Assembly: GCA_965649055.1 (NCBI GenBank)
Contig: CBFGJG010000042.1
Coordinates: forward strand, 1-16,152
DNA: 16,152 bases
Reading direction: 5' to 3'
Origin: a candidate division WOR-3 bacterium
GTDB lineage: Bacteria > Hydrothermota > UBA3072 > B12-G15
Below are positions 1-16,152 of this stretch, one piece after another (positions within the stretch are counted from its first letter, which is position 1; every line of letters begins with the position of its first letter). A model generated the notes under the pieces. It was not told the DNA's origin and made no database searches. It worked only from the letters and a program-made list of their open reading frames with translations. The translations under genes and the position numbers were made by a program.

Positions 1-412
1 GATATTCTTCTTCTAATTTCGAAAATATAAGCGATATTTTCTCTATAAACTCTTCTTTATTAAGTTCCTCTAAAGGGTCTTCCGATTTAACCATTTCTAT
101 TTTGTTCATTATTTCCTTTTCACGATTTTTCTTCCTTATAAAACTTATTGTATGGTTATAAGCTATTTTCATAACCCAAGGATAAAATGGATAATTACAA
201 TTATATTTATTTAGTGAACGAAAGACCTTTATAAATATTTCCTGAACAAGGTCTTCTGCATCATCTCTATTTTGAACCATTCTATAAACTAAATTATAAA
301 CTTTCATCTTATACCTCTCAACAATAACAGCATAGTTATCATTATCACCCCTTTTTATTCTTTCTATCAATATTTCATCTTTTTCATTACTTAAATACGC
401 AAAATTTTTCAT
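1..412 (-). CDS. ECF (sigma-70 family) RNA polymerase sigma factor, 3' end truncated by window edge
   Basis: Not in the ORF track. Hand translation from ATG at 412 gives 137 open codons to the edge: MKNFAYLSNEKDEILIERIKRGDNDNYAVIVERYKMKVYNLVYRMVQNRDDAEDLVQEIFIKVFRSLNKYNCNYPFYPWVMKIAYNHTISFIRKK... Region-2 signatures DAEDLVQE and FxxWxxxIAxN are present. Exact start uncertain. Confidence 0.92.
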   Translation of the reverse strand, partial: MKNFAYLSNEKDEILIERIKRGDNDNYAVIVERYKMKVYNLVYRMVQNRDDAEDLVQEIFIKVFRSLNKYNCNYPFYPWVMKIAYNHTISFIRKKNREKEIMNKIEMVKSEDPLEELNKEEFIEKISLIFSKLEEEY

Positions 413-421
413 TTTATTCCC
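394..421 (-). promoter_or_regulatory. Putative ECF-type promoter GGGAAT-N16-CGTATT overlapping the sigma start
   Basis: -35 GGGAAT at 421..416, 16-nt spacer, -10 CGTATT at 399..394. Fits the general ECF consensus (GGAA(C/T) ... CGT). Confidence 0.4.
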
Positions 422-426
422 GTAAT

Positions 427-3234
427 TTATCTCCAATCACCAAAAACTGCAAATGGTGCCCAGTAAAATGGTTTATCATAGAATTCCTGTTTCTTTAACC
501 ACCTCTGTGCATCACATAATGCCTTTGTTTTGTCTTTTGACTTTAAATTTTTATAGAAATTCATCATTAAAAGAACTGTTGCATCATCACTAACCTTCCA
601 TAATGATGCAACAACTGAAGGAGTTCCAGCATATATAAAAGCCCTGCTTAATCCTGTAAGTTCATCACCAATGAAACCTGACTCTGAAAATCCTCTTAGC
701 TGTCCTGTTTCACATGCAGATAATGTTATAAGATATGCATTTAATTCCAAATTGAATATTTCTTTTACCTTTAGTTCCCCATCGTTCTCTTCATCTTTAG
801 AGAGTATTATTCTTGATTCCATTGCAGAATCACCCGGTGCAAGTTTACCGTGAGTTGCAAAATGAACTATATCAAAATCTTTAACATTTTTCTTCACATT
901 TGTCTCTGTTGGAAAAGAATTTGAGAGTGAATCATCTGAAAAAATCTTAATATTTTTTGTTAATCCAATCTTTAATATAGAATCTTTTTCTCCTATAGTT
1001 CCATTTAAAGGCATATCAAACCACGCTGGATGCTCTCTAAATTTGGACTTTGCGAAAATAACGAATGATTCCTTTTTGAGTTTATTTTTATTCCTTGCAA
1101 TTAAATATACTGAGGAAGATGGCGCGTAAAAAATATCGAAATTGTCAATAATAAGTTTTTTTGTCTCAGGATCAATAACAATTGTTGAAAAAGGAAGATT
1201 GTGTAAAGAGCCATAAGGAATAATACATAGTCTTTTTTTATCTTTTATCTCATCCCATACAGGCTTTATCAATTTATTAAAAAACCATTTAGATAAATCC
1301 AAAAAATCATTATCATCAAAACTTGAAGGCATCCTTATAAAATCACGATAATCTTTAATTTTTTGATAAATTTCATTTGGTTTCGCATCTATTTTTCTTA
1401 TACATAATTTATTACTTGTTATTCCAAATACATAGGCATTTTCAAAACCTACAAAATATTCAATGATTGCTGTTTTGTCATCAAGAATTTTTTGAACCTC
1501 TTTTACATCAATAGGTTTTTTAGATTTCAGTATATTATAATCTGGGAATTTTTTAGACAATTCTTTTATTATCTTGTTATGTTCAATTATAGCACTTGTC
1601 TGTTCAGGAAGTCCTGTAAGGAATTCTATCTTCCTTTCAAGTTCCTGTTCCTTCTTTATAAGTTCTTTAATCTCTATAGAAAGGTCCTCCCTTTCAGAAA
1701 TATCAATACCTCTAAGTAAATCAAGAAATGCCCTTGATTTAGCATTTTCTGCATAATAAAATGAGTTTTTTGCATCACCTTTTTTAAAATAAAGTTCAAT
1801 AAGCATCTCGTAAATGAATATCTTGTTTTCAAAGAATGCAGATTTAAATTCCTGTCCTGTCAGTTTACCCCTGAGATTTTCAACCATATCAACTGCCATT
1901 TTTAATGAATTTATTGCCTCATCAGTTTCACCTGATTTATAAAATGCAAATCCAAGATTTGAAAGTATTGACAATTCCCAATCCTTTCTTTTACTCTTTT
2001 CAGCAATCTTAATTGCTTCTTTATAGTAATCTATTCCTTTCTTATAATCACCTTTTATAACGTATAGATTTCCTAAATTACAGAGAACCTTTGTGATTCC
2101 AACAGAATCCATTGTTAACTTATAAATATCAAGGGATTTTTCATAATTTTCAATTGCTTTATCGAATTCTCCTTTTCTTTCATATGCAATACCTAAATTA
2201 TTAAAAAACAATCCTTCATCTTTTTTATCCATTATAATCTGTCTTGAAAGATTAAAATAATAAATTGCAGTATCAAGATATATACTTTTTGCAGGTGCCA
2301 ACAGTATATACGAATAGCCTATACTGAATAAAGCCTCTATCTCCCATGTTTCGTTTTTTGTATATTTAAATATTTCATAAGCATTTTTAAAATTTTCAAT
2401 CCCCGCATGGTATTTTCCCATATCAACTAATAAATTCCCAATATTAATCAGAATCTCGCCTTCACCAATAAGTATTCCTCTTTCACCCTTCAATTTCCGT
2501 ATATATATCAAAGCATTATTAAGATACTCATAAGATAAATCATAATCACCAAGTTTTCTTAAAATATTTCCCATCTCTCGATAAGCATCAGCTGCACTTT
2601 TATAAAGTCCAAGATTTAATGAAAGAGAGCAGGAAAGACCAAAATATTTCATTGCACTGTCAGGTTCGCCTTTTTTTATAAAAATACTTCCTATCAAATA
2701 TGAACCGTCTATAATCCCTTTTTTATACCCTATTTTTTCTGAATTCTGGATAACAGAATAAAGCGTTTTTTTACCTTCTTCAAAATTATCCTCAGTAATA
2801 TATATATTCCCAAGCATAAGATAAACATTAATCTCATCTATTTTATCTTCTATTGATTTCTCTTTTATCTTTTGATTCATCTTTAATGCTTGATTAAAAA
2901 AATCTTTTGCCTCATAAATATTATTTTGATAAAATGAAAGGCTTCCTAAATTAATGTAAATCTTTGTAATACCTGGATAATACTTCTCACTTTTAAATAT
3001 CTTCAAAGCCTCATTATAAAATTTCTTTGATTTTTCTATATCACCGAAAGAAAAATAGATGTTTCCAAGCCCTTTCAGACATACCCCTCTTTCTATACCT
3101 TTCGCATTAATAAGAACCTCGTTATATAAACTTTCAGCCTTCAAGAAATGTTGTGAGAAAAATAATGAATCTGCTTCCTTTAATCTTAAATCTAAATATT
3201 CAACAGATAAGATTAAAATGTAATTTATCAACAT
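427..3234 (-). CDS. TPR-repeat + CHAT (caspase-like cysteine protease) domain protein
   Basis: Many TPR units (e.g. FFNNLGIAYERKGEFDKAIENYEKSL, LCNLGNLY, LSNLGFAF) and the linker AENAKSRAFLDLL. CHAT motifs IIPYGSLHNLPF, VHFATHG (His), LITLSACETG (Cys), VVASLWKVSD and PFYWAPF. SD GGAG 9 nt upstream of the ATG. Confidence 0.95.
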   Translation of the reverse strand: MLINYILILSVEYLDLRLKEADSLFFSQHFLKAESLYNEVLINAKGIERGVCLKGLGNIYFSFGDIEKSKKFYNEALKIFKSEKYYPGITKIYINLGSLSFYQNNIYEAKDFFNQALKMNQKIKEKSIEDKIDEINVYLMLGNIYITEDNFEEGKKTLYSVIQNSEKIGYKKGIIDGSYLIGSIFIKKGEPDSAMKYFGLSCSLSLNLGLYKSAADAYREMGNILRKLGDYDLSYEYLNNALIYIRKLKGERGILIGEGEILINIGNLLVDMGKYHAGIENFKNAYEIFKYTKNETWEIEALFSIGYSYILLAPAKSIYLDTAIYYFNLSRQIIMDKKDEGLFFNNLGIAYERKGEFDKAIENYEKSLDIYKLTMDSVGITKVLCNLGNLYVIKGDYKKGIDYYKEAIKIAEKSKRKDWELSILSNLGFAFYKSGETDEAINSLKMAVDMVENLRGKLTGQEFKSAFFENKIFIYEMLIELYFKKGDAKNSFYYAENAKSRAFLDLLRGIDISEREDLSIEIKELIKKEQELERKIEFLTGLPEQTSAIIEHNKIIKELSKKFPDYNILKSKKPIDVKEVQKILDDKTAIIEYFVGFENAYVFGITSNKLCIRKIDAKPNEIYQKIKDYRDFIRMPSSFDDNDFLDLSKWFFNKLIKPVWDEIKDKKRLCIIPYGSLHNLPFSTIVIDPETKKLIIDNFDIFYAPSSSVYLIARNKNKLKKESFVIFAKSKFREHPAWFDMPLNGTIGEKDSILKIGLTKNIKIFSDDSLSNSFPTETNVKKNVKDFDIVHFATHGKLAPGDSAMESRIILSKDEENDGELKVKEIFNLELNAYLITLSACETGQLRGFSESGFIGDELTGLSRAFIYAGTPSVVASLWKVSDDATVLLMMNFYKNLKSKDKTKALCDAQRWLKKQEFYDKPFYWAPFAVFGDWR

Positions 3235-3264
3235 TATACATTTCTCCGAATCTATGTTATTTTT

Positions 3265-3293
3265 ATTATAAAAATAATTAAATAAAAAGTCAA
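3265..3293 (-). promoter_or_regulatory. sigma70-type promoter for the TPR-CHAT/ECF sigma unit
   Basis: TTGACT (3293..3288), 17-nt spacer, TATAAT (3270..3265); 30 nt upstream of the ATG. Confidence 0.75.
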
Positions 3294-3395
3294 GTTTTTG
3301 AGTCTTTATTTCTTTTAATTTTAATTGAATCAGTAAATTTCTCTATTTAAAGCAATTAATCGATTGATTATCTGTATCTTTTATAAATAATGAAA

Positions 3396-4031
3396 CTATT
3401 TTGCTATTGCAAGGAATGCAATCACCGCTGTTTCTATCCTTAAGATATAATCTGATAGTTTTATTGGGAAACCACCTTTTGATAAAATCAAATTCTTTTC
3501 CTCTTCTGTAAAACCTCCTTCCGGACCTACTAAAAATAGACCATCTTCTATCTTTTCAATTCTTTCACCGTTTATATCACCAAAATATATCTTTTTAAAT
3601 CCCATATTCAAAACATCTTCTAATTTCATTCCATCATATATCAATGGTAGATTAGGATTTCCCGATTGTTTCATTCCTTCAATAATGTATTTCTTTATCT
3701 TATCTTTCTTCACTATCCTCAAAGACCTTTCAGTTATTAAAGGGATGAATCCTTTAACACCAAATTCTGCAAGTTTTTCACATAAGAAATGAATCCTTTT
3801 CCCTTCAGGCAATGCAGATGAAATGAATATATCTTTATCGAACTTTACTGTTTTAATATCTTTTATCATTATCTCTTTATCTTTAAAATAAACATAATAA
3901 ACATTACCTTTACCATCTAAAATCCCAAAAATTTGATTGTCTCTTATTCTTTTGACCCTTATATGTTTCCATTCTTCGTCGGGTATAATTTTACTTTTTT
4001 CAGTGAATTTTTCGGAAAAGAAATAATCCAT
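3396..4031 (-). CDS. rsmE: 16S rRNA m3U1498 methyltransferase RsmE
   Basis: HIRVKR near the N-terminus, EKLAEFGV, and the SPOUT motifs LVGPEGGF and ILRIETA. Confidence 0.93.
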   Translation of the reverse strand: MDYFFSEKFTEKSKIIPDEEWKHIRVKRIRDNQIFGILDGKGNVYYVYFKDKEIMIKDIKTVKFDKDIFISSALPEGKRIHFLCEKLAEFGVKGFIPLITERSLRIVKKDKIKKYIIEGMKQSGNPNLPLIYDGMKLEDVLNMGFKKIYFGDINGERIEKIEDGLFLVGPEGGFTEEEKNLILSKGGFPIKLSDYILRIETAVIAFLAIAK

Positions 4032-4056
4032 AAAAAAGGGGCTTTTTAAGCCCCTT
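4032..4056 (-). terminator. Intrinsic terminator after the ECF/Spy cassette
   Basis: Perfect 9-bp inverted repeat AAGGGGCTT/AAGCCCCTT (4036-4044 / 4048-4056). On the minus strand the 3' arm runs into T6. It begins 3 nt after the stop at 4060. Confidence 0.8.
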
Positions 4057-4059
4057 CAT

Positions 4060-4617
4060 TCACTTAACATCCTGTTGCTTACACTTATGTTCCTGTTTCT
4101 GTTCCTCGGTGCATTTGTGTTCCTGTTTTTGTTCTTGTGTGCACCTGTGTTCCTGTTCTTTTTCCATTACTTTCTTTATTATCTTTTTTCTTATCTCTTC
4201 TTTCCCGCAGAATAACCAATGTTTTGCTTCTTTTGCCTTCTCTTTTGGAAGTAGTTTATAAACTGAAATTTTGAAGTTCAGTATCTTAAGTTCCATATCG
4301 TTCTTCAGTTGCTGTATCTCTTTCCATTTAGCCTGAAATTTCTCAATCGAGAAATCATCCTTTCTTAAAATATCCATCAGTTCCATCTCTTTCTTCTCAA
4401 TATTATATCTCGCGTCAAGCATTTCCTTTTGATGTTGATACCAGAGGTCTTCAATCTTTGTCTTCAAATCAGCACCAATTTCAAGCTTATCCATCATCTC
4501 CTTAAGCATCGGTGTATGGGGACCCATTGCTAATTCAATAACTTCTTCCTCATTCACAATATCCTGTGCTAAGACTGTGAAAGGGATAAAAGCAAAAGCC
4601 AATAATAAATACTTCAT
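4060..4617 (-). CDS. Secreted Spy/CpxP/ZraP-like helical periplasmic protein with His/Cys-repeat tail
   Basis: Canonical signal peptide MKYLLLAFAFIPFTVLA|QD and a long amphipathic helical body with Spy/heavy-metal-sensor-like patterning (KIEDL..., YKLLPKEK). SD AAGGAGG. Family assignment is by resemblance and context. Confidence 0.7.
   Translation of the reverse strand: MKYLLLAFAFIPFTVLAQDIVNEEEVIELAMGPHTPMLKEMMDKLEIGADLKTKIEDLWYQHQKEMLDARYNIEKKEMELMDILRKDDFSIEKFQAKWKEIQQLKNDMELKILNFKISVYKLLPKEKAKEAKHWLFCGKEEIRKKIIKKVMEKEQEHRCTQEQKQEHKCTEEQKQEHKCKQQDVK
4081..4160. repeat. ~2.6 copies of a 30-bp in-frame tandem repeat (T-x-E-Q-K-Q-E-H-[KR]-C)
   Basis: Units acacttatgttcctgtttctgttcctcggt / gcatttgtgttcctgtttttgttcttgtgt / gcacctgtgttcctgttctt start at 4081, 4111 and 4141. 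Confidence 0.9.
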
Positions 4618-4628
4618 AGAACCTCCTT

Positions 4629-5045
4629 TTAAGGTTTAAAGTTTACTGGTTTTCTTAAATCTCTCATCAAAATTCCTCTTATAAAAGCCTTCCTCATATC
4701 TGGTGGCATGTCTTTTGATGTCTCAATTATATGCCTTATAACTTTTTCCCTCATCTCAAGTTCAAGCTGAATGATCTCTTCTGAAATCTGAAATGCAAAA
4801 TCACTATCACCCTTTGTAATAGCAACAATTAAAAGTTCATCTTTCCTTATCTTTTCCTCCATAAGTGGTGCCATTTCTTTCCTGAATTTATCTATCTCAG
4901 GTTTAATCATATGATACGAAACAAATCTTGAGAAATATCTTGCATTCCTTCTAATGGTTATGTATCTACCTATTGCAAAACCAGCACTAACAGATACAAC
5001 ACAAATAAGAATTATAATTAAAATATTAATAAGTTTATTCTTCAA
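4629..5045 (-). CDS. Membrane-anchored periplasmic heavy-metal-sensor-like protein (CnrX/Metal_resist-like)
   Basis: TTG start with SD GGAGGTG, one N-terminal TM helix, helical body ending IRHIIETSKDMPPDMRKAF (LxPEQR-like). Lies directly behind the sigma/anti-sigma pair. Confidence 0.6.
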   Translation of the reverse strand: MKNKLINILIIILICVVSVSAGFAIGRYITIRRNARYFSRFVSYHMIKPEIDKFRKEMAPLMEEKIRKDELLIVAITKGDSDFAFQISEEIIQLELEMREKVIRHIIETSKDMPPDMRKAFIRGILMRDLRKPVNFKP

Positions 5046-5337
5046 AGTAAATCACCTCCTCGGTTAATGTTATATATTCCTGATATTTATATGAGTTTTT
5101 ACCAACATAAATACCAAGTAGTATAAGTATTAATGAAAAAACAAATGCAGGGTAAAGGATAGGTATCATTCTTCTTTCTTTCTTATATGTAGGGAGATTA
5201 TCAAGTAGTCTCCAAACCTTTCTATATTCATTATATTCTTTGCGAAGTCTTCTATCAGGTAATATGGATAAAAAAATAAAAATTCTTTTTATAATATTCT
5301 TTTCCCCGGTAATTAACTCAAATATCTTTTTTTCCAT
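5035..5337 (-). CDS. Putative single-TM anti-sigma factor
   Basis: Overlaps the ECF sigma stop by 20 nt, SD GGAGGT. Cytoplasmic N-domain with EYNEYRKVWRLLDNL (anti-sigma-domain-like helix), then one TM (ILYPAFVFSLILILLGIYVG). Confidence 0.7.
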   Translation of the reverse strand: MEKKIFELITGEKNIIKRIFIFLSILPDRRLRKEYNEYRKVWRLLDNLPTYKKERRMIPILYPAFVFSLILILLGIYVGKNSYKYQEYITLTEEVIYFEE

Positions 5338-5800
5338 TACTACCTCCTATATAAGGCTCAAGATAAATTTTTAATTTTTCAAGTGTCCTCATCAATATAA
5401 TCCTGCTGTTTTCTTCTGAAATATTCAGTATATCTGAAATCTCCTTATGTGAAAGGTTTTCAAATTTTTTCAGGGTAATTATAGCCCTTTCTTTTGGCTC
5501 AAGTTTCATCATTGCCTTTTGGACAACTTCCTTTATTTCTTTTTTTAATAAACAGGATTCAGGGTCTTCTTCTTCTAAGAATAATTCATAGGTCTTGGAA
5601 TTATTCTTAACAAGATTTATAGACTTATTTGTTGCAACCTTCATAAGCCATGCCTTTATATTACCTTCAGGTTTTCTTTTTTCATACTCAAGTATTGTAT
5701 CTTGAAGTATATCCTCACTATCAGCTATATTCCCTGTTATCCTGTAACTTATACTTAATATCATATTTTTATATCTCCTGTAAATTTCCTCTGTGTTCAT
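5318..5800 (-). CDS. ECF RNA polymerase sigma factor
   Basis: Region 2 (DSEDILQD, KAWLMKVATNKSIN) and region 4 (LEPKERAIITLKKFENLSHKEISDIL). Confidence 0.93.
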   Translation of the reverse strand: MNTEEIYRRYKNMILSISYRITGNIADSEDILQDTILEYEKRKPEGNIKAWLMKVATNKSINLVKNNSKTYELFLEEEDPESCLLKKEIKEVVQKAMMKLEPKERAIITLKKFENLSHKEISDILNISEENSRIILMRTLEKLKIYLEPYIGGSNGKKDI

Positions 5801-5810
5801 TCTATATAAT

Positions 5811-5838
5811 ATAACATATAAAGAATTGATTTGTTACA
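5811..5838 (-). promoter_or_regulatory. Putative autoregulatory ECF promoter TGTAAC-N16-TGTTAT
   Basis: -35 TGTAAC at 5838..5833, 16-nt spacer, -10 TGTTAT at 5816..5811. Lies 10 nt before the sigma ATG with no SD in between. Confidence 0.55.
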
Positions 5839-5851
5839 ATTTTTTGAATTT

Positions 5852-7894
5852 TTATTCCTTTATCGTAAAAAAACCTTTTTTTATCTTTTTTACAACCCCA
5901 TTAAAAGATATAAGAAAATTATCTCCATCTTTTTTTATAATTATTCCTTCACCAAATACAGGATGAGAAACAATCTTTCCACCGAAATCTGATTTTACCT
6001 TTTTTCTTCTTATTTCTCCTTCTATCTCTACTGCATCCGGAGGTAATTCTTCAATAAACCTTGAACAAACAAAATCTTCAAAACTTCTATAATTGGACAG
6101 TCTTGTCTGGTAAAATGATATATAAGCCTTTTCTTTTGCGCGGGTAATACCAACATAAAAGAGTCTTCTCTCTTCTTCGATACCTGAACTATCATAAGAC
6201 AAATAATGCGGGAAGATGCCTTCAACAAGACCTGATATAAAGACAACTGGGAACTCAAGCCCTTTTGCATTGTGTATAGTCATAAGAGATACTCTATTAC
6301 CTTTTTCTGTTCTATCAATATCTGTGAGAAGGGAAACTTCATGAAGAAAATCAGCAAGCTCAGCTTCTGGGTTCCTTTCCATAAAATATTCAATTGAACG
6401 CCCGAGTTCTTCAATATTTTCAATCCTCGATAATGATTCTGGTGTTCCTTCCTCTTCAAGTAAACGAATAATTCCTGTTTCTTCTATTATTTTTTTTAAA
6501 AGTTTATCAGGTTTTTTAATCTTACCCATTTCTTCTATCATCTCAACGAAATCTTCTACCTTACTATTTATTTCCCCTACCTCTCTTGCTGCATCCCATA
6601 CAGGTATTCCTCTTTTTTCTGAAGTAATTAGGATATTATCAATTGTAACTTTTCCTATACCTCTTGATGGAGTATTTATAATCCTTAAAAAACTTGTGAC
6701 ATCATTCTTATTCAATATAAATCTCATATAAGCAAGAATATCTTTTATCTCTTTTCTTTCATAAAACACTATACCTTTATAAATTTTATAGGGAATATTC
6801 ATCTTTATTAGTGCCTCTTCAATAGGCCTTGATTGTGCATTTGTCCTGTAAAATACTGCCATTTCAGAGTAATCGTATTTTTTTGATTCTTTCAAAATAT
6901 TAAATGCTATTTTATCTGCTTCTTCTATGTCTGTCTGTGCAGAAAAAATTTTAATCTTTTCACCAGCCGGTTTATCTGTCCATAATGTTTTGCCCATCCT
7001 TAAAAGATTATTTTTTATCATATAAGATGCTGCGTCAAGAATGTATCCTGTAGATCTATAGTTTCTTTCAAGTTTATATATTTTAACATTTTTGAAGTCT
7101 TTTTCAAAATTAAGAATATTATTAATATCAGCACCTCTGAAACTATATATTGACTGGTCATCATCGCCAACAACAAATATATTATTATGTTTTTCTGCAA
7201 GTAGCTTAAAAATCACATATTGAGCATGATTTGTATCCTGATATTCATCTATTAAAATGAACCTGAATTTTTCACCCAATCTTTCCCTTATATCAGGAAA
7301 TTCTTTTAAAATTCTTGCTATATTATAAAGTAAATCATCGAAGTCCATTGCATTATAAAAGAACATTTCACTCTCATATTCCATAAATATTTTTTTAAGG
7401 TAATGGCTTTTTTCATCTTTTTCAACAATACTCTTATAATTTAGAAGTCTATTCTTATAATGTGAAATCGCATTCTGAACATAGCCTATAGATATTTTCT
7501 TTTCCGGTATTTCCAGTTTTTTAAATATATTCTTCAGAACCTGCTTCTGCTCATCCGTATCATAAATACTAAAGTTATTATTATAACCAATTTTATCTGC
7601 ATAAACCCTTAATATTCTTGCACAGAAAGAATGAATTGTTCCTATATTAAGTTCACTTGGGTCCCTTTTAAGTAGATTCCTTATCCTTTCTTTCATCTCG
7701 TCAGCTGCTCTATTTGTAAATGTAACAGCAACTATATTGTATAAGGGAATTTTATAGAAATGATTAAGATATGCGATTCTATAGGTAATTACCCTTGTTT
7801 TACCAGAACCTGCGCCGGCTAAAACCAGCGCAGGTCCCTCAAAATGTTTAACGCATACTATTTGCTCTTCATTTAATTCATCAAGTAATGACAA
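5852..7894 (-). CDS. uvrD: UvrD/PcrA superfamily 1 DNA helicase
   Basis: AGAGSGKT, TFTNRAA, IDEYQDTN, VGDDDQSIYSFRGA, LERNYRST, MTIHNAKGLEF, EERRLFYVGITRAK and a C-terminal HPVFGEG Tudor-like domain. TTG start 1 nt after the ompA stop. Confidence 0.96.
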   Translation of the reverse strand: MSLLDELNEEQIVCVKHFEGPALVLAGAGSGKTRVITYRIAYLNHFYKIPLYNIVAVTFTNRAADEMKERIRNLLKRDPSELNIGTIHSFCARILRVYADKIGYNNNFSIYDTDEQKQVLKNIFKKLEIPEKKISIGYVQNAISHYKNRLLNYKSIVEKDEKSHYLKKIFMEYESEMFFYNAMDFDDLLYNIARILKEFPDIRERLGEKFRFILIDEYQDTNHAQYVIFKLLAEKHNNIFVVGDDDQSIYSFRGADINNILNFEKDFKNVKIYKLERNYRSTGYILDAASYMIKNNLLRMGKTLWTDKPAGEKIKIFSAQTDIEEADKIAFNILKESKKYDYSEMAVFYRTNAQSRPIEEALIKMNIPYKIYKGIVFYERKEIKDILAYMRFILNKNDVTSFLRIINTPSRGIGKVTIDNILITSEKRGIPVWDAAREVGEINSKVEDFVEMIEEMGKIKKPDKLLKKIIEETGIIRLLEEEGTPESLSRIENIEELGRSIEYFMERNPEAELADFLHEVSLLTDIDRTEKGNRVSLMTIHNAKGLEFPVVFISGLVEGIFPHYLSYDSSGIEEERRLFYVGITRAKEKAYISFYQTRLSNYRSFEDFVCSRFIEELPPDAVEIEGEIRRKKVKSDFGGKIVSHPVFGEGIIIKKDGDNFLISFNGVVKKIKKGFFTIKE

Positions 7895-7895
7895 A

Positions 7896-9749
7896 CTACT
7901 GTGAAATAACCTTAAATTCTACCCTTCTATTCCTTGCTCTTCCTTCCCTTGTTGTATTTGGTGCAATAGGCATAGATTCACCATAACCTTTAGCAATAAG
8001 CCTTGATGCTTCAACACCACGCTGAATAAGATAATTTCTTACAGCGTTTGCCCTGGATTCTGATAATCTTAGGTTATAACTATCAGAACCCTGTGAATCA
8101 GTATGTCCACCAATCTCAACAACAACAGTTGTGTTTGCTTTAAGCAGTTCTGCAATGTTGTCAAGGATAGGATAAGAAGTTGGTAGAATCACTGCACTTC
8201 CTGTTTCAAAGTTAATATCATTGAAAACAAGAACCTGTTTCTCTTTAAGTTGTTCATATAAACCAATATTTTGTATCGTTGTTTCTTTATCCTTTATAAC
8301 CACCACTATTGTTTGCGGAACATATCCATCCGCTTCAATCTTTACATTGTAAGTCCCTTCTTTCAATTCCTTCTTGAATATACCTGTTTCAATATCTGAT
8401 GTGATTGGTTTTTCATCAGTTCCAAGGAATGTTATCTTTGCGGCGATTGGTTTCTTTGACCTCGCATCTGTAACAGTTCCGGTAAATGTTCCTACAGGAA
8501 TATATATTTTCTTTAATGTCTGGTCAATATTTATAGTTTGATCTGCTATTATATTTATAGTTCCTTGTTTTGAAATATAACCATCCTTAACAAGCTTGAA
8601 ATTATAAGTTCCCGGTTTAAGTTTTATTGTGACCTTGCCAGTGATATCTGTTGAATATGGTTGAATAGTAGTATCCTCAAAGATTATATTAGCCATCAAA
8701 GGTTCATCCGTTTCCATATCCTTAAGACTTACTATTAGTGTTCCTTCTTTTGGTTTTGGTGGTGGGGGAGGTGGAACCTCTTTCTTCCTCTCTATTAACG
8801 CATTTGTTGTAGTGAAACCAAATGTGAATTTCCATTTACCTGATTCGTTGAAATAATCTTCTCTATTTCTGTAATCCCAATCAGGGACCATATCTATACT
8901 ATTATTCATCAATGAATATTCCCCACCAAAATCAAATGTAACACCCACTGGTGTTGTAAACCTTATACCTACCATACCCATAAGTGTATCCTTAATATTT
9001 ATATCTTTAAGATGAACATTCCCCTTAACTCCAAGAAGGAACCTTGTAAAAGGGCCTGCCCAGAGTTCAACACCAGCACCATAAAGAAAACTATTAGTAT
9101 TATTCATTGAATCAAGCGCATTAAAATAGTCATTCAAAGTATCATATTCTGTAAACCTATCCCTTACACCACGCTTAAAATATCCAAGATTCCCATGTAT
9201 CATTAAAGGAAAGATCTCAATATCTATTAGAAAATCACCTTGGTAATCTGCCCTGTGGGTGTTAGTAGGATAGAAATTTCCATTTTTAACAGCATCTTCA
9301 ACTCTTCTCTGGATAATAGTCGTTTTACCAGCACCATGAAAACCTACGAATATACCAACAGGAATTCTTGGTGTGTCATTCAAAACTGGTATTGAAAGTT
9401 TGAAACCACCATAGATATTCTCATTTCCAGGATTCCCCCAATCACGTTGATAGCCGGCATCACCGTCTTTTCTTTCCTCATATTTTACATAGAAAGTTCC
9501 ACCAAAATACGCTTCAATGTAATCGAGTATTCCATAAGCAAGCCCTACATACCCTTTTGCAAAATGATGGTCAACATCATATGTTGTTACAGTATCAGTA
9601 TACCTTTCGAGATAATGCTGTCTTGTATACTGGATACCCGAAAAGAAACTCAGGTTTGCCATAGGAAGAGAACGTGCTGAAATTATTGTAAAGGAACCTG
9701 AAGGTCCGGTTAGTGAAGGATATGAAAACAATAAAACCAATCCTAACAT
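7896..9749 (-). CDS. OmpA-family outer-membrane protein (putative N-terminal beta-barrel, poly-Pro linker, two carboxypeptidase-regulatory/PEGA-like domains, OmpA_C)
   Basis: C-terminal INFETGSA, IGGHTDSQGSDSYNLRLSESRANAV, GYGESMPIA and GRARNRRVEF. PPPPPPKP linker. Aromatic alternating beta-strand pattern in the N-half. SD GGAGG 7 nt upstream. Confidence 0.9.
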   Translation of the reverse strand: MLGLVLLFSYPSLTGPSGSFTIISARSLPMANLSFFSGIQYTRQHYLERYTDTVTTYDVDHHFAKGYVGLAYGILDYIEAYFGGTFYVKYEERKDGDAGYQRDWGNPGNENIYGGFKLSIPVLNDTPRIPVGIFVGFHGAGKTTIIQRRVEDAVKNGNFYPTNTHRADYQGDFLIDIEIFPLMIHGNLGYFKRGVRDRFTEYDTLNDYFNALDSMNNTNSFLYGAGVELWAGPFTRFLLGVKGNVHLKDINIKDTLMGMVGIRFTTPVGVTFDFGGEYSLMNNSIDMVPDWDYRNREDYFNESGKWKFTFGFTTTNALIERKKEVPPPPPPKPKEGTLIVSLKDMETDEPLMANIIFEDTTIQPYSTDITGKVTIKLKPGTYNFKLVKDGYISKQGTINIIADQTINIDQTLKKIYIPVGTFTGTVTDARSKKPIAAKITFLGTDEKPITSDIETGIFKKELKEGTYNVKIEADGYVPQTIVVVIKDKETTIQNIGLYEQLKEKQVLVFNDINFETGSAVILPTSYPILDNIAELLKANTTVVVEIGGHTDSQGSDSYNLRLSESRANAVRNYLIQRGVEASRLIAKGYGESMPIAPNTTREGRARNRRVEFKVISQ

Positions 9750-9775
9750 ATAAAAACCTCCATAATTTTAAATAG

Positions 9776-9848
9776 TGAGCCGTGCAGGAATCGAACCTGC
9801 GACTCCCGGCTTAAAAGGCCGGTGCTCTACCTGCTGAGCTAACGGCCC
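9776..9848 (-). tRNA. tRNA-Lys (anticodon UUU), CCA not encoded
   Basis: Reverse complement reads GGGCCGTTAGCTCAGCAGGTAGAGCACCGGCCTTTTAAGCCGGGAGTCGCAGGTTCGATTCCTGCACGGCTCA. Acceptor, D, anticodon (CCGGC-CTTTTAA-GCCGG) and T arms all fold. Followed by CTA. Confidence 0.97.
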
Positions 9849-9857
9849 ACTTTAATT

Positions 9858-9885
9858 AATTTATAACAATTATAATAATTGTCAA
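9858..9885 (-). promoter_or_regulatory. sigma70-type promoter for tRNA-Lys (and probably ompA-uvrD)
   Basis: TTGACA (9885..9880), 16-nt spacer, TAAATT (9863..9858); 9 nt before the tRNA 5' end. Confidence 0.6.
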
Positions 9886-9904
9886 GAATTTTCAAGAATT
9901 TTCT

Positions 9905-12132
<2,228 letters not shown>

Positions 12133-13407
12133 CTATCCTCCTTTTTTATAATCAGGTTTCTGGAAACTATATTCAAAACTTGTATAATGTTTGTACCTGT
12201 TTTCAATCAATGCAATAACATCTTCTATGAATACTATCTCTTCATCTGTTGGTATTACAAAAACTTTTATTTTTGAATCATCCGAAGAGATAACAAATTC
12301 TTTATCTCTGCTTTTTGCATTATTATTCCTTTCAATATCAATCTTTATCCCCAATTCATCAAGTTCTTTTAATGCTTCATATCTTAGCTCAGGCCACATT
12401 TCCCCAACTCCAGCAGTGAAAACAATTGCATCAACATGCCCTAAGACAGCTGTATAAGCACCTATGTATTTTCTTATTCTGTAAGCCTCTATCTTGAATG
12501 CAAGAATTGACCTTTCGTCACCCTCAGAAATTCCTGTCTCCACATCCCTTCTATCGGTATACTTTCCAGTAATACCCAGAATACCACTCTTTTTATTCAA
12601 AATATTTATTACCTCAGATGCAGAAATATTAAGTTTTTCGGAAATATAACCTATAATTGCAGGGTCAATATCTCCACTCCTTGTTCCCATAACAACGCCT
12701 TCAAGTGGGGTGAAACCCATAGATGTATCAACTGATATGCCTTTCTTTATTGCTGTTATACTTGCCCCATTACCTATATGACAGGTTATAAGGTTAACCT
12801 CATCCGGTTTTTTACCAAGAAGACAGGCTGCTCTCCTTGAAACATAAAGATGACTTGTTCCATGAAATCCATATCTTCTTATTCCGTATTTCATATACCA
12901 TTCATATGGAACTGGATAAATATACGCATAGTTTGGCATTGTCTGATGGAATGCAGTATCCATCACTGCAATATGGGGTATATCAGGAAGAATTTCCATT
13001 GCGCTCTCTATACCCAAAACATTAGGGGGATTATGTAAAGGTGCAAGGTCTGATAGTTCTTTAAATTTATCAATAACCTCTTGTTTTATTATCACTGATT
13101 TTGTAAAAACCTCACCACCATGAACAACTCTGTGTCCAACTGCTATAATCTCTTTTCTATCCTTAAGGATTCCTATTTTAGGATCTTCAAGAACTTTCAA
13201 GATCAATTTAATAGCCTCTTTGTGTGTTGGACATTCTTCTTCAATCTTAATCTTATCATTACCAGTTATCTCGTGTTTTATAAAAGAACCACCAACTGTA
13301 ACCCTTTCTACAATACCTTTTGCTAATACTTTTGATATATCACAATCAAACAGAGAATATTTTACAGATGAACTACCACAATTTAATGTTAATATCAATC
13401 TACCCAT
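12133..13407 (-). CDS. ackA: Acetate kinase
   Basis: LNCGSSSVK, GHRVVHGG, LAPLHNP, DTAFHQT, RRYGFHGTSH, DTSMGFTPLEG, FTAGVGE and IPTDEE. Confidence 0.97.
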   Translation of the reverse strand: MGRLILTLNCGSSSVKYSLFDCDISKVLAKGIVERVTVGGSFIKHEITGNDKIKIEEECPTHKEAIKLILKVLEDPKIGILKDRKEIIAVGHRVVHGGEVFTKSVIIKQEVIDKFKELSDLAPLHNPPNVLGIESAMEILPDIPHIAVMDTAFHQTMPNYAYIYPVPYEWYMKYGIRRYGFHGTSHLYVSRRAACLLGKKPDEVNLITCHIGNGASITAIKKGISVDTSMGFTPLEGVVMGTRSGDIDPAIIGYISEKLNISASEVINILNKKSGILGITGKYTDRRDVETGISEGDERSILAFKIEAYRIRKYIGAYTAVLGHVDAIVFTAGVGEMWPELRYEALKELDELGIKIDIERNNNAKSRDKEFVISSDDSKIKVFVIPTDEEIVFIEDVIALIENRYKHYTSFEYSFQKPDYKKGG

Positions 13408-13811
13408 CTCTCCTCCCCGAAGAAAAATTTTATCTCCCTTTCTGCACTTTCAGGTGAATCCGACGCATGAACAGCGTTAACTGTTACATTCGTTCCATAA
13501 AGTTTTCTTATTGTTCCATCTTCTGCCTTGGAAGGGTCTGTAGACCCAACTATATTCCTTATCCTTGTAACTGCATTTTCACCTTCTATTCTTATTGCAA
13601 CAACAGGACCCGTAAGCATAAAATTTATAAGTCTTTCAAAGAAAGGTTTACCTCTATGGATTTCATAGAATCTTTCTGCCCTTTCTTTTGTAAATTTTTC
13701 CATTTTTATGTTTGTTATTTTAAAATCATTTCTTTCAATAATTCTAATTATCTCTCCAATCAGAGATCTCTTGACTCCATCAGGTTTGATCATAAGTAAG
13801 GTTTCGCTCAC
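13395..13811 (-). CDS. ndk: Nucleoside-diphosphate kinase
   Basis: TLLMIKPDGV, FYEIHRGKPFF, GTIR and NAVHASDS (phospho-His). GTG start. Confidence 0.97.
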   Translation of the reverse strand: MSETLLMIKPDGVKRSLIGEIIRIIERNDFKITNIKMEKFTKERAERFYEIHRGKPFFERLINFMLTGPVVAIRIEGENAVTRIRNIVGSTDPSKAEDGTIRKLYGTNVTVNAVHASDSPESAEREIKFFFGEERWVD

Positions 13812-13817
13812 ATTTTT

Positions 13818-13845
13818 ATTTTAGGATAAAAGATTTTTATGTCAA
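13818..13845 (-). promoter_or_regulatory. sigma70-type promoter for ndk operon (likely leaderless)
   Basis: TTGACA (13845..13840), 16-nt spacer, TAAAAT (13823..13818), 6 nt, then the GTG start. Confidence 0.75.
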
Positions 13846-13884
13846 TAAAATTTTTAAAAGAGCATTAAAAAATAAAAAATTTTT

Positions 13885-13912
13885 GGAACCTTTTTTTGAA
13901 ACTGTTCGTCTT
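13885..13912 (+). promoter_or_regulatory. ECF/sigmaE-type promoter GGAACC-N16-CGTCTT
   Basis: GGAACC at 13885-13890, 16-nt spacer, CGTC at 13907-13910. Matches the widely seen ECF consensus GGAAC-N17-CGT. Confidence 0.65.
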
Positions 13913-13917
13913 TATAA

Positions 13918-13974
13918 TTGCATAAAGACCTCCTTCCTTTTAATATATACGGGAGCCTCCGGGCTCCCATTTTT
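13918..13974 (+). ncRNA. Candidate ECF-dependent small RNA with anti-Shine-Dalgarno seed
   Basis: Bounded by an ECF promoter and an intrinsic terminator, with no ATG. Contains CATAAAGACCTCCTTCC. The 5' end is estimated from promoter spacing. Confidence 0.6.
13951..13974 (+). terminator. Intrinsic terminator with c(UCCG)g tetraloop
   Basis: GGGAGCC-TCCG-GGCTCCC followed by ATTTTT. The UNCG loop and U-tract both point to the + strand. No + strand CDS lies upstream for it to terminate. Confidence 0.8.
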
Positions 13975-14009
13975 ATTGACTTTTTTTTTATATATATTAA
14001 AAAATTAAT

Positions 14010-14672
14010 ATGAGATTAAAAGCAGACCTTCATATACATACAAGAAATTCTTATGATTCTTTAAATAGTATTGACAAAATTATCCAATTTGCAAAAAGGA
14101 AGAATTTAAATGTAATAGGTATAACAGACCATAATCATCTTACAATTTACCCTGATTATAAAAATATTAAAATTATATTTGGTGAAGAGATAAAAACAAA
14201 GAATGGAGAAATTATCGGATATTTTTTAAAAGAAAAGATAAGAAAAGGAATGACAATAATGGATACAATAAGGGCTATAAAAGAACAAGAAGGTATTGTT
14301 TGTGTTCCACATCCTCTTGATAGAATTAGACGTTCAGCTATAGGTATAGAGACATTAATGAAGATAATAGATTTTGTAGATATCATAGAAGTATTCAACG
14401 GAAGAACAACCTTTCTTGAAGATAATCTTAATGCTTTAAAAATTGCAAAAGAATACAAAAAGAGTATGAGTGTTGGAAGTGATGCACATATACCCTTTGA
14501 AATAGGTTCCTGTTCATTCGAGATAGACGATTTTAATTCTAAAGACGAATTTTTGAATGTCTTAAAAAATCCCAAAATAAATATGGGATTAAGTCCTTTT
14601 GTTGTTCATATTCCATCAACATTTGCAAAATATTATAACAGGATCGGGAATTTGTTCAAAAGATATAAATAA
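14010..14672 (+). CDS. PHP-domain metal-dependent phosphoesterase
   Basis: DLHIHT, ITDHN, GEEI, VPHP, EVFNGR and GSDAH. The 3' end overlaps the convergent kinase gene by 17 nt. Confidence 0.92.
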   Translation: MRLKADLHIHTRNSYDSLNSIDKIIQFAKRKNLNVIGITDHNHLTIYPDYKNIKIIFGEEIKTKNGEIIGYFLKEKIRKGMTIMDTIRAIKEQEGIVCVPHPLDRIRRSAIGIETLMKIIDFVDIIEVFNGRTTFLEDNLNALKIAKEYKKSMSVGSDAHIPFEIGSCSFEIDDFNSKDEFLNVLKNPKINMGLSPFVVHIPSTFAKYYNRIGNLFKRYK

Positions 14673-15969
14673 GCTGAATGTCATTCACATTAGTTCCTGT
14701 TAAGCCAGTAAAAATAAGGTCTTTTGAAGACTTTAAAGTTTTTTCAGCATTATGTAATTCCAAAGAATATAATATTTTCTTCTTCCCAGTAAGCCCAATA
14801 GTATAATTGTCAACTATCGCACCAGCATAATTACTTGAGCCATCTTTACCATCTGTATCTATTGAAGAGAAAACAAATTTCATTTTTGGTGAAATATTCA
14901 GAATAAAATAAAGACATAATTCCTGATTTGCACCACCTTTTCCCTTTTTCCCTGAAATATTTACCTCTGTTTCACCTCCAGAAATTAGAATGACGGGTTT
15001 CCTCACAGGAATATTGTTAAAGTAGACATCCTCTGCTATTGCACTTAAAAAAATACCTGCATTATTTGGTGAACCTCTTATTCTTGAAGAAATTATAAAT
15101 GTTTTGAATTCAGATATTCTTTTAATTTCCTTTAATACATCAATGTTTTTTAAAATTATAAAATTATTAATGTTATTTAAAAGTATTCTTTCTTTGCTTT
15201 TAATTTTCAGAAACTTCTTTAATTCGGGAAAGCCTTCAAATATTCTGTATTTATTCACGACTTCTTTGAATTCTTCAAATGTTGTATTGTTTTCAACAGT
15301 TGGCCCGGAACTTATCATATCTATTCTATCGTCAACAACATCCGATATAATAAGATTTATTATTTGTGCTTTACATAGCTTTGCGAGTTTTCCTCCTTTA
15401 ACTCCTGATAAAAATTTTCTTACTGTATTTATTTCCTGAATATCTGCACCAGATTCAATCAGTTTTTTTGATATTTCTATCTTCTGTCTTAAAGTAATTC
15501 CGTCTTCAGGTAAAACAAGAGAAGAAGAACCACCACCTGAGATTAAAAAAATAACATGGTCATCTTTTTTAGTATTTTGAATCAAAGAAATAACCCTTTT
15601 TGTCCCTTTAACACTATTTTCGTTCGGATAAGGATGGCTAGACCTGTAGTATTCAAATTCATTCCCAGTATATTTTTCAGGTGAGATTAAAATATATCTT
15701 TTAACTTTTTTATTTAAAATTTTCTTTATTCCCTCAGCCATTCCCAATGCTGCCTTCCCAAATCCTATAACATAAACATTTCTATTCCTGATATTGAAAC
15801 TTTCATTGAAGATATATAATTTTTCATTTTTAAATTCAATATTTCTATTTATTGAATTTTCAGGATTTGCAAAATTTATTGCCTTTTCAATCAGTTCCAA
15901 TATATATTTTCTTTCTTTTTTAAAAATTTTACCTTCTGTAATCTCATTCTTGTTTTTTATTATATTCAT
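14656..15969 (-). CDS. Glycerate 2-kinase family (class II, DUF4147 + MOFRL)
   Basis: GFGKAA, SHPYP, LISGGGSS, INTVRK.LSGVKGG.LA, ISDV, SSGPT, SGGET, DTDGKDG and TGLTGTNVND. Start moved from the track's TTG (16005) to ATG 15969. Confidence 0.88.
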   Translation of the reverse strand: MNIIKNKNEITEGKIFKKERKYILELIEKAINFANPENSINRNIEFKNEKLYIFNESFNIRNRNVYVIGFGKAALGMAEGIKKILNKKVKRYILISPEKYTGNEFEYYRSSHPYPNENSVKGTKRVISLIQNTKKDDHVIFLISGGGSSSLVLPEDGITLRQKIEISKKLIESGADIQEINTVRKFLSGVKGGKLAKLCKAQIINLIISDVVDDRIDMISSGPTVENNTTFEEFKEVVNKYRIFEGFPELKKFLKIKSKERILLNNINNFIILKNIDVLKEIKRISEFKTFIISSRIRGSPNNAGIFLSAIAEDVYFNNIPVRKPVILISGGETEVNISGKKGKGGANQELCLYFILNISPKMKFVFSSIDTDGKDGSSNYAGAIVDNYTIGLTGKKKILYSLELHNAEKTLKSSKDLIFTGLTGTNVNDIQLIYIF

Positions 15970-15975
15970 AAATAA

Positions 15976-16005
15976 AATATAAACAGATTTCTGTTTGTAT
16001 GTCAA
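15976..16005 (-). promoter_or_regulatory. sigma70-type promoter for the glycerate kinase gene (likely leaderless)
   Basis: TTGACA (16005..16000), 18-nt spacer, TATATT (15981..15976), 6 nt, then ATG. Confidence 0.6.
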
Positions 16006-16014
16006 GGAGATAAA

Positions 16015-16152
16015 TTAACAAAAAACGGGAAGATCAGGGACATGGTGGTACAATTTATTATAATTAACATTTAAGTTTTGTCTAAAAATTTTATCATAAA
16101 TCTCATCAATTATTATAGGTGGTATATATGCTAACACACAAGGTAGGTTATA
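16015..16152 (-). CDS. 3' end of an unidentified gene entering from the right edge
   Basis: 45 open codons from the edge (YNLPCVLAYIPPIIIDEIYDKIFRQNLNVNYNKLYHHVPDLPVFC) ending in TAA at 16017..16015, just before the next promoter. No recognisable motif. Confidence 0.45.
   Translation of the reverse strand, partial: YNLPCVLAYIPPIIIDEIYDKIFRQNLNVNYNKLYHHVPDLPVFC

Follow-up and report, generated by a model that had tools for sequence, protein, structure and literature searches.

The stretch of DNA analysed here, called the window below, comprises positions 1 to 16,152 (16,152 nucleotides, forward strand) of contig CBFGJG010000042.1 from a candidate division WOR-3 bacterium (assembly GCA_965649055.1; genome of 2.08 Mb, 31.6% GC, 85 contigs). 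It very probably contains a gene for a short RNA with an extracytoplasmic function (ECF)/sigmaE-type promoter, an unpaired 5' end complementary to Shine-Dalgarno (SD) sequences and an intrinsic terminator. We consider it somewhat better than an even bet that this ECF-driven RNA acts against the translation initiation regions of mRNAs for secreted proteins, including cargo of type IX secretion (T9SS). A preliminary description of the window had proposed a sigmaE-small RNA-ompA circuit, in which the RNA would pair over 12 bases with the ribosome-binding site of a gene called ompA. The RNA and its stress-type promoter stood up to analysis, but ompA as its specific target did not: 89 to 130 genes rank above it, and a privileged, MicA-like role for it is not supported.

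The RNA gene occupies the intergenic stretch that separates two divergent genes, ndk on the minus strand (13395-13811) and a PHP gene on the plus strand (14010-14672). The positions of its elements are given in Table 1. About 8 nt past the -10 element the sequence reads GCAUAAAGACCUCCUUCC..., followed by a hairpin and a U-run. No plus-strand gene is located upstream of the terminator, which is therefore an orphan, and the scan found one terminator-like site in the region compared to 0.1 expected. In the predicted fold, nucleotides 1-36 of the RNA are unpaired, including the seed (13921-13936), which contains the 12-mer at 13922-13933. The promoter scan revealed no plus-strand sigma-70-like site upstream of 13920, and a sigma-54 or sigma-70 reading of the RNA promoter was ruled out by eye on spacing. 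A look-up of RNA data sets listed none for window positions 7000-15000, and the one metatranscriptome of the same study had 0 contigs on positions 13000-15000, which is uninformative on expression either way.

A second copy of the RNA gene was present on contig C65 of the same genome. It is 82% identical over promoter and seed, its hairpin sequence is unrelated and its seed reads ...AUAAACACCUCC. BLAST of the intergenic region against 40 relatives returned the C65 paralogue only, and finding homologues required a promoter-plus-seed pattern. Using the -35 element, the -10 element and CCTCC, clear homologues were obtained in the other genera of the order. Within the order, the strict form of the pattern (GGAAC-N15-19-GTCT-N8-22-ATANNNACCTCC) matched 19 of 24 genomes; elsewhere in the phylum it matched 1 of 248, while the reversed pattern, used as a control, had 0 matches in all 272 genomes. 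The alignment of 12 homologues showed conservation of GGAAC, GTCT (near-invariant), ATA and ACCTCC, with hairpins differing by lineage. Despite these lineage-specific hairpin sequences, a strong 3' hairpin was present in all 19 homologues folded. CAU-N5-CCUCC is kept in family f1 and in genus g4; as this CAU is kept 5 nt before CCUCC, the conserved single strand is an anti-start codon plus an anti-SD. In the relative G002 the RNA gene shares its setting with the C65 copy, the proteins encoded downstream of the two being 48% identical; the window copy is thus an extra paralogue.

These data bear on whether there is a functional RNA at all. The promoter motif, the terminator, the unpaired seed, the conservation, the paralogy and the complementarity statistics are read from the sequence alone, as is the RNA itself, and no Rfam family was matched at 13880-13980 (cmscan of the whole window, E ≤ 1; the MicA, RybB, MicL and VrrA models were unmatched). 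A chance arrangement of promoter-like and terminator-like sequences, or a remnant, would be consistent with this. By contrast, conserved promoter boxes and seed recur together with a hairpin in 8 genera, the hairpin is kept while its sequence changes, and the reversed pattern matched nothing, making chance or decay very improbable. A reading of the minus strand as an SD with a mini-ORF (open reading frame) was also rejected: the hairpin has no U-run on that strand, and the conserved GGAAC/GTCT boxes would be left without a role. The minus strand of 13911-13936 and its C65 equivalent do carry a perfect SD, an ATG and a 3-codon mini-ORF ending in TAA (MQL* in the window, MHK* on C65), probably a by-product of the anti-initiation-region seed.

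The neighbourhood of the copies raises the alternative of a cis element, that is, an ECF-driven leader or attenuator reading through into the downstream gene, with the anti-SD as a feature of the leader; the genes downstream would thereby gain stress-induced transcription. Every copy is followed by a same-strand gene within approximately 40-100 nt: PHP in the window, hsp20-htrA in the sister family (f2) and a secreted protein at C65. At the one sister-family locus examined (genome G008), the RNA is directly upstream of hsp20 and an HtrA-like protease gene, both typical stress-regulon genes. The sister-family U-tract after the hairpin is interrupted (UUCUUUAUAAAA), and FoxJ of Fusobacterium nucleatum is described as initially misannotated as a 5' untranslated region (PMC11005410). 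However, a separate TTGAC(A) promoter stands between terminator and gene in all copies (the box was seen in all homologues readable there), the window terminator has a good hairpin and U-run, the downstream genes vary (PHP, a secreted protein of unknown function, hsp20) while the seed is conserved, and the PHP gene has no SD for the anti-SD to sequester. We consequently regard a leader or attenuator as unlikely. Two further features were seen in the sister family. The terminator loops (L066, L049, L069 and others) hold a second C-rich, anti-SD-like stretch, CUCCCCUC or UUCCCUCA, and a near-consensus TTGACA...TATAAT promoter directly follows the terminator.

Next, we analysed predicted targets of the RNA. 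ORFs were called by a simple codon score, giving a set of 1862 genes that covers 93% of the genome. Their starts were picked by SD score, which biases the set towards competitors of the OmpA-domain gene discussed below, and 279 genes carried a full GGAGG. Starts were ranked by a home-made IntaRNA-like score combining duplex and opening energies. The top of the ranking was rich in large signal-peptide proteins, whose C-termini looked T9SS-like and were then tested by Pfam. Nineteen of the top 44 targets were submitted (ranks 1-5, 7, 8, 11-16, 18-20, 33, 37 and 44); Por_Secre_tail was found in six and FlgD_ig in one, along with proteases of families C1, M14, S8 and C11. In the whole genome Por_Secre_tail (PF18962) had 58 matches at E ≤ 0.01, 38 of them over the cut-off. 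Four matches at contig ends without a called gene were dropped, leaving 54 mapped and 53 ranked. The top 20 included nine of the ranked T9SS-domain genes (Fisher 8e-10), the top 50 included 12 (4e-9) and the top 100 included 15 (4e-8), and among the 279 GGAGG genes the 20 with a T9SS domain outranked the other 259 (Mann-Whitney 2e-5).

The enrichment is concentrated in one initiation sequence. GGAGG with a spacer of 3-10 nt precedes 531 starts, and 15 of these have the form GGAGG-T[CT]TTT-ATG. A T9SS domain was found in 10 of these 15 genes vs. 16 of the 516 other GGAGG starts (Fisher 3e-11; three of the ten matches fall below the curated cut-off), and 14 of the 15 have either a T9SS domain or a signal-peptide call, the latter made by a crude heuristic of our own. 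The 15 genes are not recent copies of one another: one trio is 40-46% identical, the rest share local similarity only, and the upstream flanks differ. T9SS-domain genes have T-rich 5-nt spacers (T fraction 0.75, compared to 0.39 in genes lacking both signal peptide and T9SS domain). Eight permuted seeds placed 1, 2, 3, 2, 2, 1, 6 and 2 T9SS-domain genes in the top 20, compared to nine for the native seed; the T9SS enrichment is specific to the native seed. A SprA_N translocon candidate is present in the genome. PorP_SprF was not found in it, and the same search matched in no control genome either.

Another explanation is an anti-SD RNA of general action, which would imitate the 16S 3' tail, dampen all SD-led translation under stress and have no particular regulon. 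The invariant core, ACCUCC(UU), and the small number of perfect extended matches in sister-family genomes would suit such a role. An RNA of this kind would still be selective, since a recognisable SD precedes only approximately 58% of the called genes (approximately 42% have none or a trace). Nevertheless, CAU is conserved at a fixed 5-nt distance in f1 and g4, and permuting the 7 nt beside CCUCC removes most of the T9SS enrichment, indicating that specificity lies outside the anti-SD. We give general dampening little credence and continue with an RNA aimed at the initiation regions of secreted-protein genes.

Several results weigh against that preferred reading. The signal-peptide call was made in 25% of GGAGG genes but in 5-7% of SD-less genes (about a 4-fold difference), and within GGAGG genes its enrichment was weak (18 of 50 vs. 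51 of 229, p=0.03). Secreted proteins are thus richer in strong SDs in general, and the T9SS link may therefore reflect a pre-existing consensus. The C65 paralogue showed no T9SS enrichment (one such gene in its top 20). Sister-family genomes hold 0-2 exact complements (GGAGGTTGTTATG) of their own seed outside the RNA gene, and in G002 there are 8 GGAGGTTTTTATG sites, to which the seed of G002 itself is mismatched. A large set of perfect matches is thus peculiar to this genome and to the window copy. No Hfq gene above the cut-off was found in the genome. The 5' end of the RNA is placed only by promoter spacing, and targets were predicted with our own gene caller, SD-favouring starts and a home-made accessibility term. 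Duplex energies refer to 37 °C, while the organism is probably a thermophile (the metagenome came from a hot spring). Under hotter conditions an AU-rich duplex of 12 bp would be marginal, and duplexes of 15-16 bp would carry more weight.

Comparison between genomes was inspected case by case. Sixteen sister-family GGAGGTTGTTATG sites were examined: two are the RNA genes read backwards, and of the remaining 14 approximately 13 stand before genes whose products have, judged by eye, a hydrophobic, signal-like N-terminus. T9SS cargo offered few orthologues for a comparison of covariation with the seed: C12:2766 and C20:10274 had only domain-level matches in G001-G003, and for C4:4558 the sole orthologue was in G001, a genome in which the search for an RNA homologue found none and a relaxed RNA pattern gave no more matches than the control. 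A large G002 gene has GGAGGUGUUUAUG, fitting the G002 seed, and its best relative in this genome (G000), C48:5807, has GGAGGUUUUUAUG, fitting the window RNA. These two proteins are 32% identical over an offset 438 residues; as their orthology is unproven, the case was given no weight.

The promoter of the RNA was compared with the rest of the genome. GGAAC-N16-18-[AC]GTCT occurs 11 times and only three occurrences are intergenic, namely those of the two RNA genes and one 15 nt before the ECF sigma gene C2:46072, where it reads GGAAC-N17-CGTCT, as at both RNA copies. The product of C2:46072-46533 is an ECF sigma factor (153 aa; Sigma70_r2, r4_2 and Sigma70_ECF). The next genes of the operon encode a 148-aa zf-HC2 anti-sigma and a 307-aa PDZ/trypsin-like protease, a layout that resembles rpoE-rseA-degS. 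This motif evidence points to a promoter of ECF/sigmaE type shared with an autoregulated sigma operon, and the sigma partner of the RNA is most likely the ECF sigma of the C2 operon. The preliminary description had all parts of the circuit within 14 kb. This is doubtful, as the motif precedes the C2 operon and was not found upstream of the window sigma gene (5318-5800), which is probably not the partner of the RNA promoter.

Two side observations were made on contig C2. In C2:45000-47900 (locus L129) an S49 peptidase gene stands before the motif, and a sigma-54 activator with a GAF domain is convergent downstream. At C2:13521 (minus strand), GGAAC-N18-AGTCT falls within a gene and precedes by 116 nt another gene (C2:10382-13405), whose 1007-aa product has a T9SS domain.

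From these data we infer how the RNA would be transcribed, on which sigma factor it would depend and which mRNAs it would repress. Release of an ECF sigma factor, most likely that of the C2 operon, would lead to synthesis of an RNA of approximately 56 nt (window 13920-13975) from a sigmaE-like envelope-stress promoter, ending at the intrinsic terminator. The RNA has CAU-AAAGA-CCUCCUU at its unpaired 5' end, a sequence antisense to an ideal initiation region (SD, 5-nt spacer, AUG). It would pair across SD and start codon of GGAGG-UYUUU-AUG mRNAs and block binding of the 30S subunit. Because the motif marks secreted proteins, above all T9SS cargo, less large exported protein would likely be made during envelope stress. 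The OmpA-domain gene, paired only up to the base before AUG, would be at best a secondary target. Repression would be expected to be strong for GGAGGTYTTTATG leaders and weak or absent for ompA. A bolder version is possible, and we hold it with clearly less confidence. T9SS cargo might carry GGAGG-UYUUU-AUG as a selected 'zip-code' that is read by the ECF-controlled RNA for a class-wide shutdown of secreted proteins under envelope stress, the system having been gained by duplication of an ancestral C65-type RNA and one seed-base change. The G at seed position 8 would then tolerate both C and U.

The pairing with ompA reported in the preliminary description was examined directly. The letters of window 9750-9761 are ATAAAAACCTCC, adjoining on the upstream side the CAT at 9747-9749, which is the ATG of the minus-strand ORF 7896-9749; those of 13922-13933 are ATAAAGACCTCC. 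Both 12-mers are thus where they had been placed. The mRNA 5'-GGAGGUUUUUAU-3' forms 12 contiguous pairs with the small RNA (11 Watson-Crick and one G:U), covering the SD up to the base before AUG, as had been claimed. A scripted search found 12 to be the longest contiguous run for this gene, and the run stops one base 5' of AUG. The name ompA holds in part. A C-terminal OmpA peptidoglycan-binding domain (PF00691) covers residues 514-608 of the 617-aa product (89.6 bits), but the E. coli-type N-terminal 8-stranded OmpA barrel domain was not detected (Pfam, E ≤ 0.001). PEGA and CarboxypepD_reg domains occupy the middle instead. The first approximately 330 residues have no Pfam match and are compatible with a different barrel.

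The match at the OmpA-domain gene is real but ordinary. At least 12 contiguous pairs with nucleotides 1-30 of the RNA were found at 66 of the 1862 called starts. The chance of at least one such match among the 14 called genes of the window is 1-(1-0.035)^14, approximately 0.4, and a single match in it is unremarkable. Complements of the whole 12-mer (12/12, wobble allowed) occur at 22 sites in the genome, compared to approximately 1.5 expected from base composition, because the 12-mer complements a common ribosome-binding region and not because of ompA. Sixteen of these sites are called gene starts. In 15 of them ATG follows directly and pairing continues into the start codon; the OmpA-domain gene (TATATG) is the sole exception.

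Genome-wide ranks tell how far a MicA-like circuit, in which the main job of the RNA is to repress the OmpA-domain gene by occluding its ribosome-binding site, fits the data. By duplex energy this gene ranked 131 of 1855 (-18.4 kcal/mol) with the window RNA and 541 of 1855 with the C65 RNA. By the IntaRNA-like score it ranked 90 of 1854 with the window RNA and 540 of 1854 with the C65 RNA. It is thus in the top 5% of starts, and it also ranks above the average GGAGG gene, a comparison called for in the preliminary description (48 of 279, top 17%). The 7 nt beside CCUCC can be permuted in 41 other ways; over the eight of these that were scored, its rank varied from 74 to 600, the native seed doing better than seven of the eight. 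Against such a circuit, 89 genes rank higher, the 15 genes sharing the 12-mer complement pair also with AUG, and the two other OmpA-domain paralogues in the genome rank 451 and 199. A weaker match had also been reported at the ribosome-binding site of a Spy-like gene (window 4060-4617). This match is present (AAAAGGAGGTTCTATG on the minus strand), but at rank 839 of 1854 the gene does not stand out as a target.

Orthologues were considered as well. The OmpA-domain protein has matches at E ≤ 1e-20 in all 24 genomes of the order, full-length in 21; a locus-relative search with the protein returned distant relatives only. Orthologues of family f1 have GGAGGUUUUU(AU)AUG as their initiation region, whereas most of those in family f2 have AAAAGGAGGAAUAAAUG. 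The energies of local RNA-orthologue pairs in f1 are moderate (-18.4, -19.2 and -21.8 kcal/mol), and RNA and orthologue are 4-10 kb apart in this genome (G000) and in G008, G009, G016 and G019, which would suit a MicA-like circuit; sigmaE-dependent RNAs repressing ompA are known, VrrA (PMC2628432) and MicA/RybB (PMC1804206) being described as such. By contrast, in all 13 sister-family genomes where RNA and orthologue leader could both be read, the two pair within each genome over the 7-base SD only, with energies (-11.7 to -15.1 kcal/mol) no better than those of cross-genome pairs. Compensatory changes between RNA and orthologue leaders, which the preliminary description had suggested looking for, were not seen. 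Taken together, a circuit devoted to the OmpA-domain gene is improbable. Some envelope gene close by will always offer a 'nice' match to an anti-SD seed, and informative matches can be told apart only by genome-wide ranking together with orthologue comparison.

Some positional details were recorded for this gene. The RNA gene and the OmpA-domain orthologue are 8-10 kb apart on the same contig in G008 (C30), G016 (C2), G019 (C2) and G009 (C4), and in G002 approximately 1.6 kb separate the RNA gene and an OmpA-domain paralogue; this proximity may be no more than general synteny. The tRNA whose 3' end precedes the gene in the window (Table 1) has its 3' end upstream of the orthologues in G001, G002, G003 and G009 as well. 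The OmpA-domain mRNA may be co-transcribed with tRNA-Lys and obtain its 5' end from tRNA processing.

Table 1. Positions in the window of the small RNA elements, the pairing sites and associated genes.
Feature	Position	Strand	Basis or remark
-35 element GGAAC, ECF/sigmaE-type promoter (predicted)	13885..13889	+	invariant in 12 aligned homologues
-10 element CGTCT, 17 nt past -35 (predicted)	13907..13911	+	GTCT near-invariant in alignment
Predicted small RNA, ~56 nt	13920..13975	+	5' end inferred from promoter spacing
Seed: CAU (anti-start codon), AAAGA, CCUCCUU (anti-SD, 16S 3'-tail-like)	13921..13936	+	
Intrinsic terminator: 7-bp GC-rich hairpin, 4-nt loop, then ATTTTTATT	13951..13977	+	fold and terminator scan
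Sigma-70-like promoter TTGACT-18-AAAAAT of downstream PHP gene	13976..14005	+	starts directly after terminator
SD and spacer GGAGGUUUUUAU of OmpA-domain gene	9750..9761	-	read directly; rank 90/1854
617-aa OmpA_C-domain protein (PEGA, CarboxypepD_reg, OmpA PF00691)	7896..9749	-	Pfam
tRNA-Lys(UUU)	9775..9848	-	ends 14 nt upstream of OmpA-domain gene SD
ECF sigma factor gene of the window	5318..5800	-	Pfam Sigma70_r2, r4_2
Ribosome-binding site and start of 185-aa 'Spy-like' gene	4615..4628	-	rank 839/1854; no Pfam family

Other parts of the window contain further features. Downstream of the window sigma gene come three small genes (100, 138 and 185 aa; region 4060-5800, minus strand), none of which has a Pfam match; the 185-aa protein has a signal-like N-terminus and a repeated EQKQEHKC tail. 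Further on, positions 2-3234 (minus strand) encode a TPR-CHAT protein of 935 aa and hold another ECF sigma gene, which is cut off. At 6105-6205 (minus strand), inside a UvrD/PcrA helicase gene, there is a sub-threshold Rfam match to RF03531 (40.6 bits vs. a gathering score of 65.2), probably owing to conservation of the coding sequence.

Should the RNA prove real and ECF-dependent, envelope-stress control by sigmaE plus small RNA, a design so far shown in Proteobacteria and Fusobacteria, would extend to an uncultured, T9SS-using hot-spring lineage. If T9SS cargo did carry a zip-code, a single 56-nt RNA would form a non-coding envelope-stress arm aimed at the type IX secretion pathway. Full-text searches of the literature found no paper on small-RNA control of T9SS cargo.

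Small RNAs with C-rich anti-SD motifs are known from Gram-positive bacteria, such as RsaE/RoxS. The C-rich CUCCCCUC stretch in the sister-family terminator loop is a further likeness to these RNAs. Their motifs, however, are in loops and they are not known to be driven by an ECF envelope-stress promoter, while the seed of the window RNA is 5'-terminal and reaches the start codon. In 6C of Mycobacterium, C-rich unpaired motifs are reported to pair with the G-rich SD of many mRNAs, as predicted for the window RNA (PMC6486639).

The closest functional parallels are MicA/RybB of Enterobacteria and VrrA/MicV of Vibrio. According to the accounts cited, these likewise combine a sigmaE-type promoter with a short, terminator-ended RNA whose unpaired seed acts at the 5' region or ribosome-binding site of envelope-protein mRNAs, forming the non-coding arm of the envelope-stress response (PMC1804206, PMC2628432, PMC6694218). 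The window RNA has no sequence or structure homology to them (no Rfam match, E ≤ 1). Its seed is a plain anti-SD plus anti-AUG and is not gene-specific, Hfq was not found above the cut-off in the genome, and its best predicted targets are T9SS cargo and secreted proteases rather than porins or OmpA.

FoxI and FoxJ of Fusobacterium nucleatum are reported as two sigmaE-dependent RNAs that repress envelope proteins, with similar seeds and different target sets (PMC11005410). They belong to another phylum, itself distant from Proteobacteria, and target the FomA porin, and FoxJ is approximately 156 nt long, compared to approximately 56 nt for the window RNA. FoxI and FoxJ are experimentally validated, whereas the window RNA is a prediction from a metagenome-assembled genome. 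The two offer a precedent for such circuits outside Proteobacteria and for a paralogous RNA pair like that formed by the window and C65 copies.

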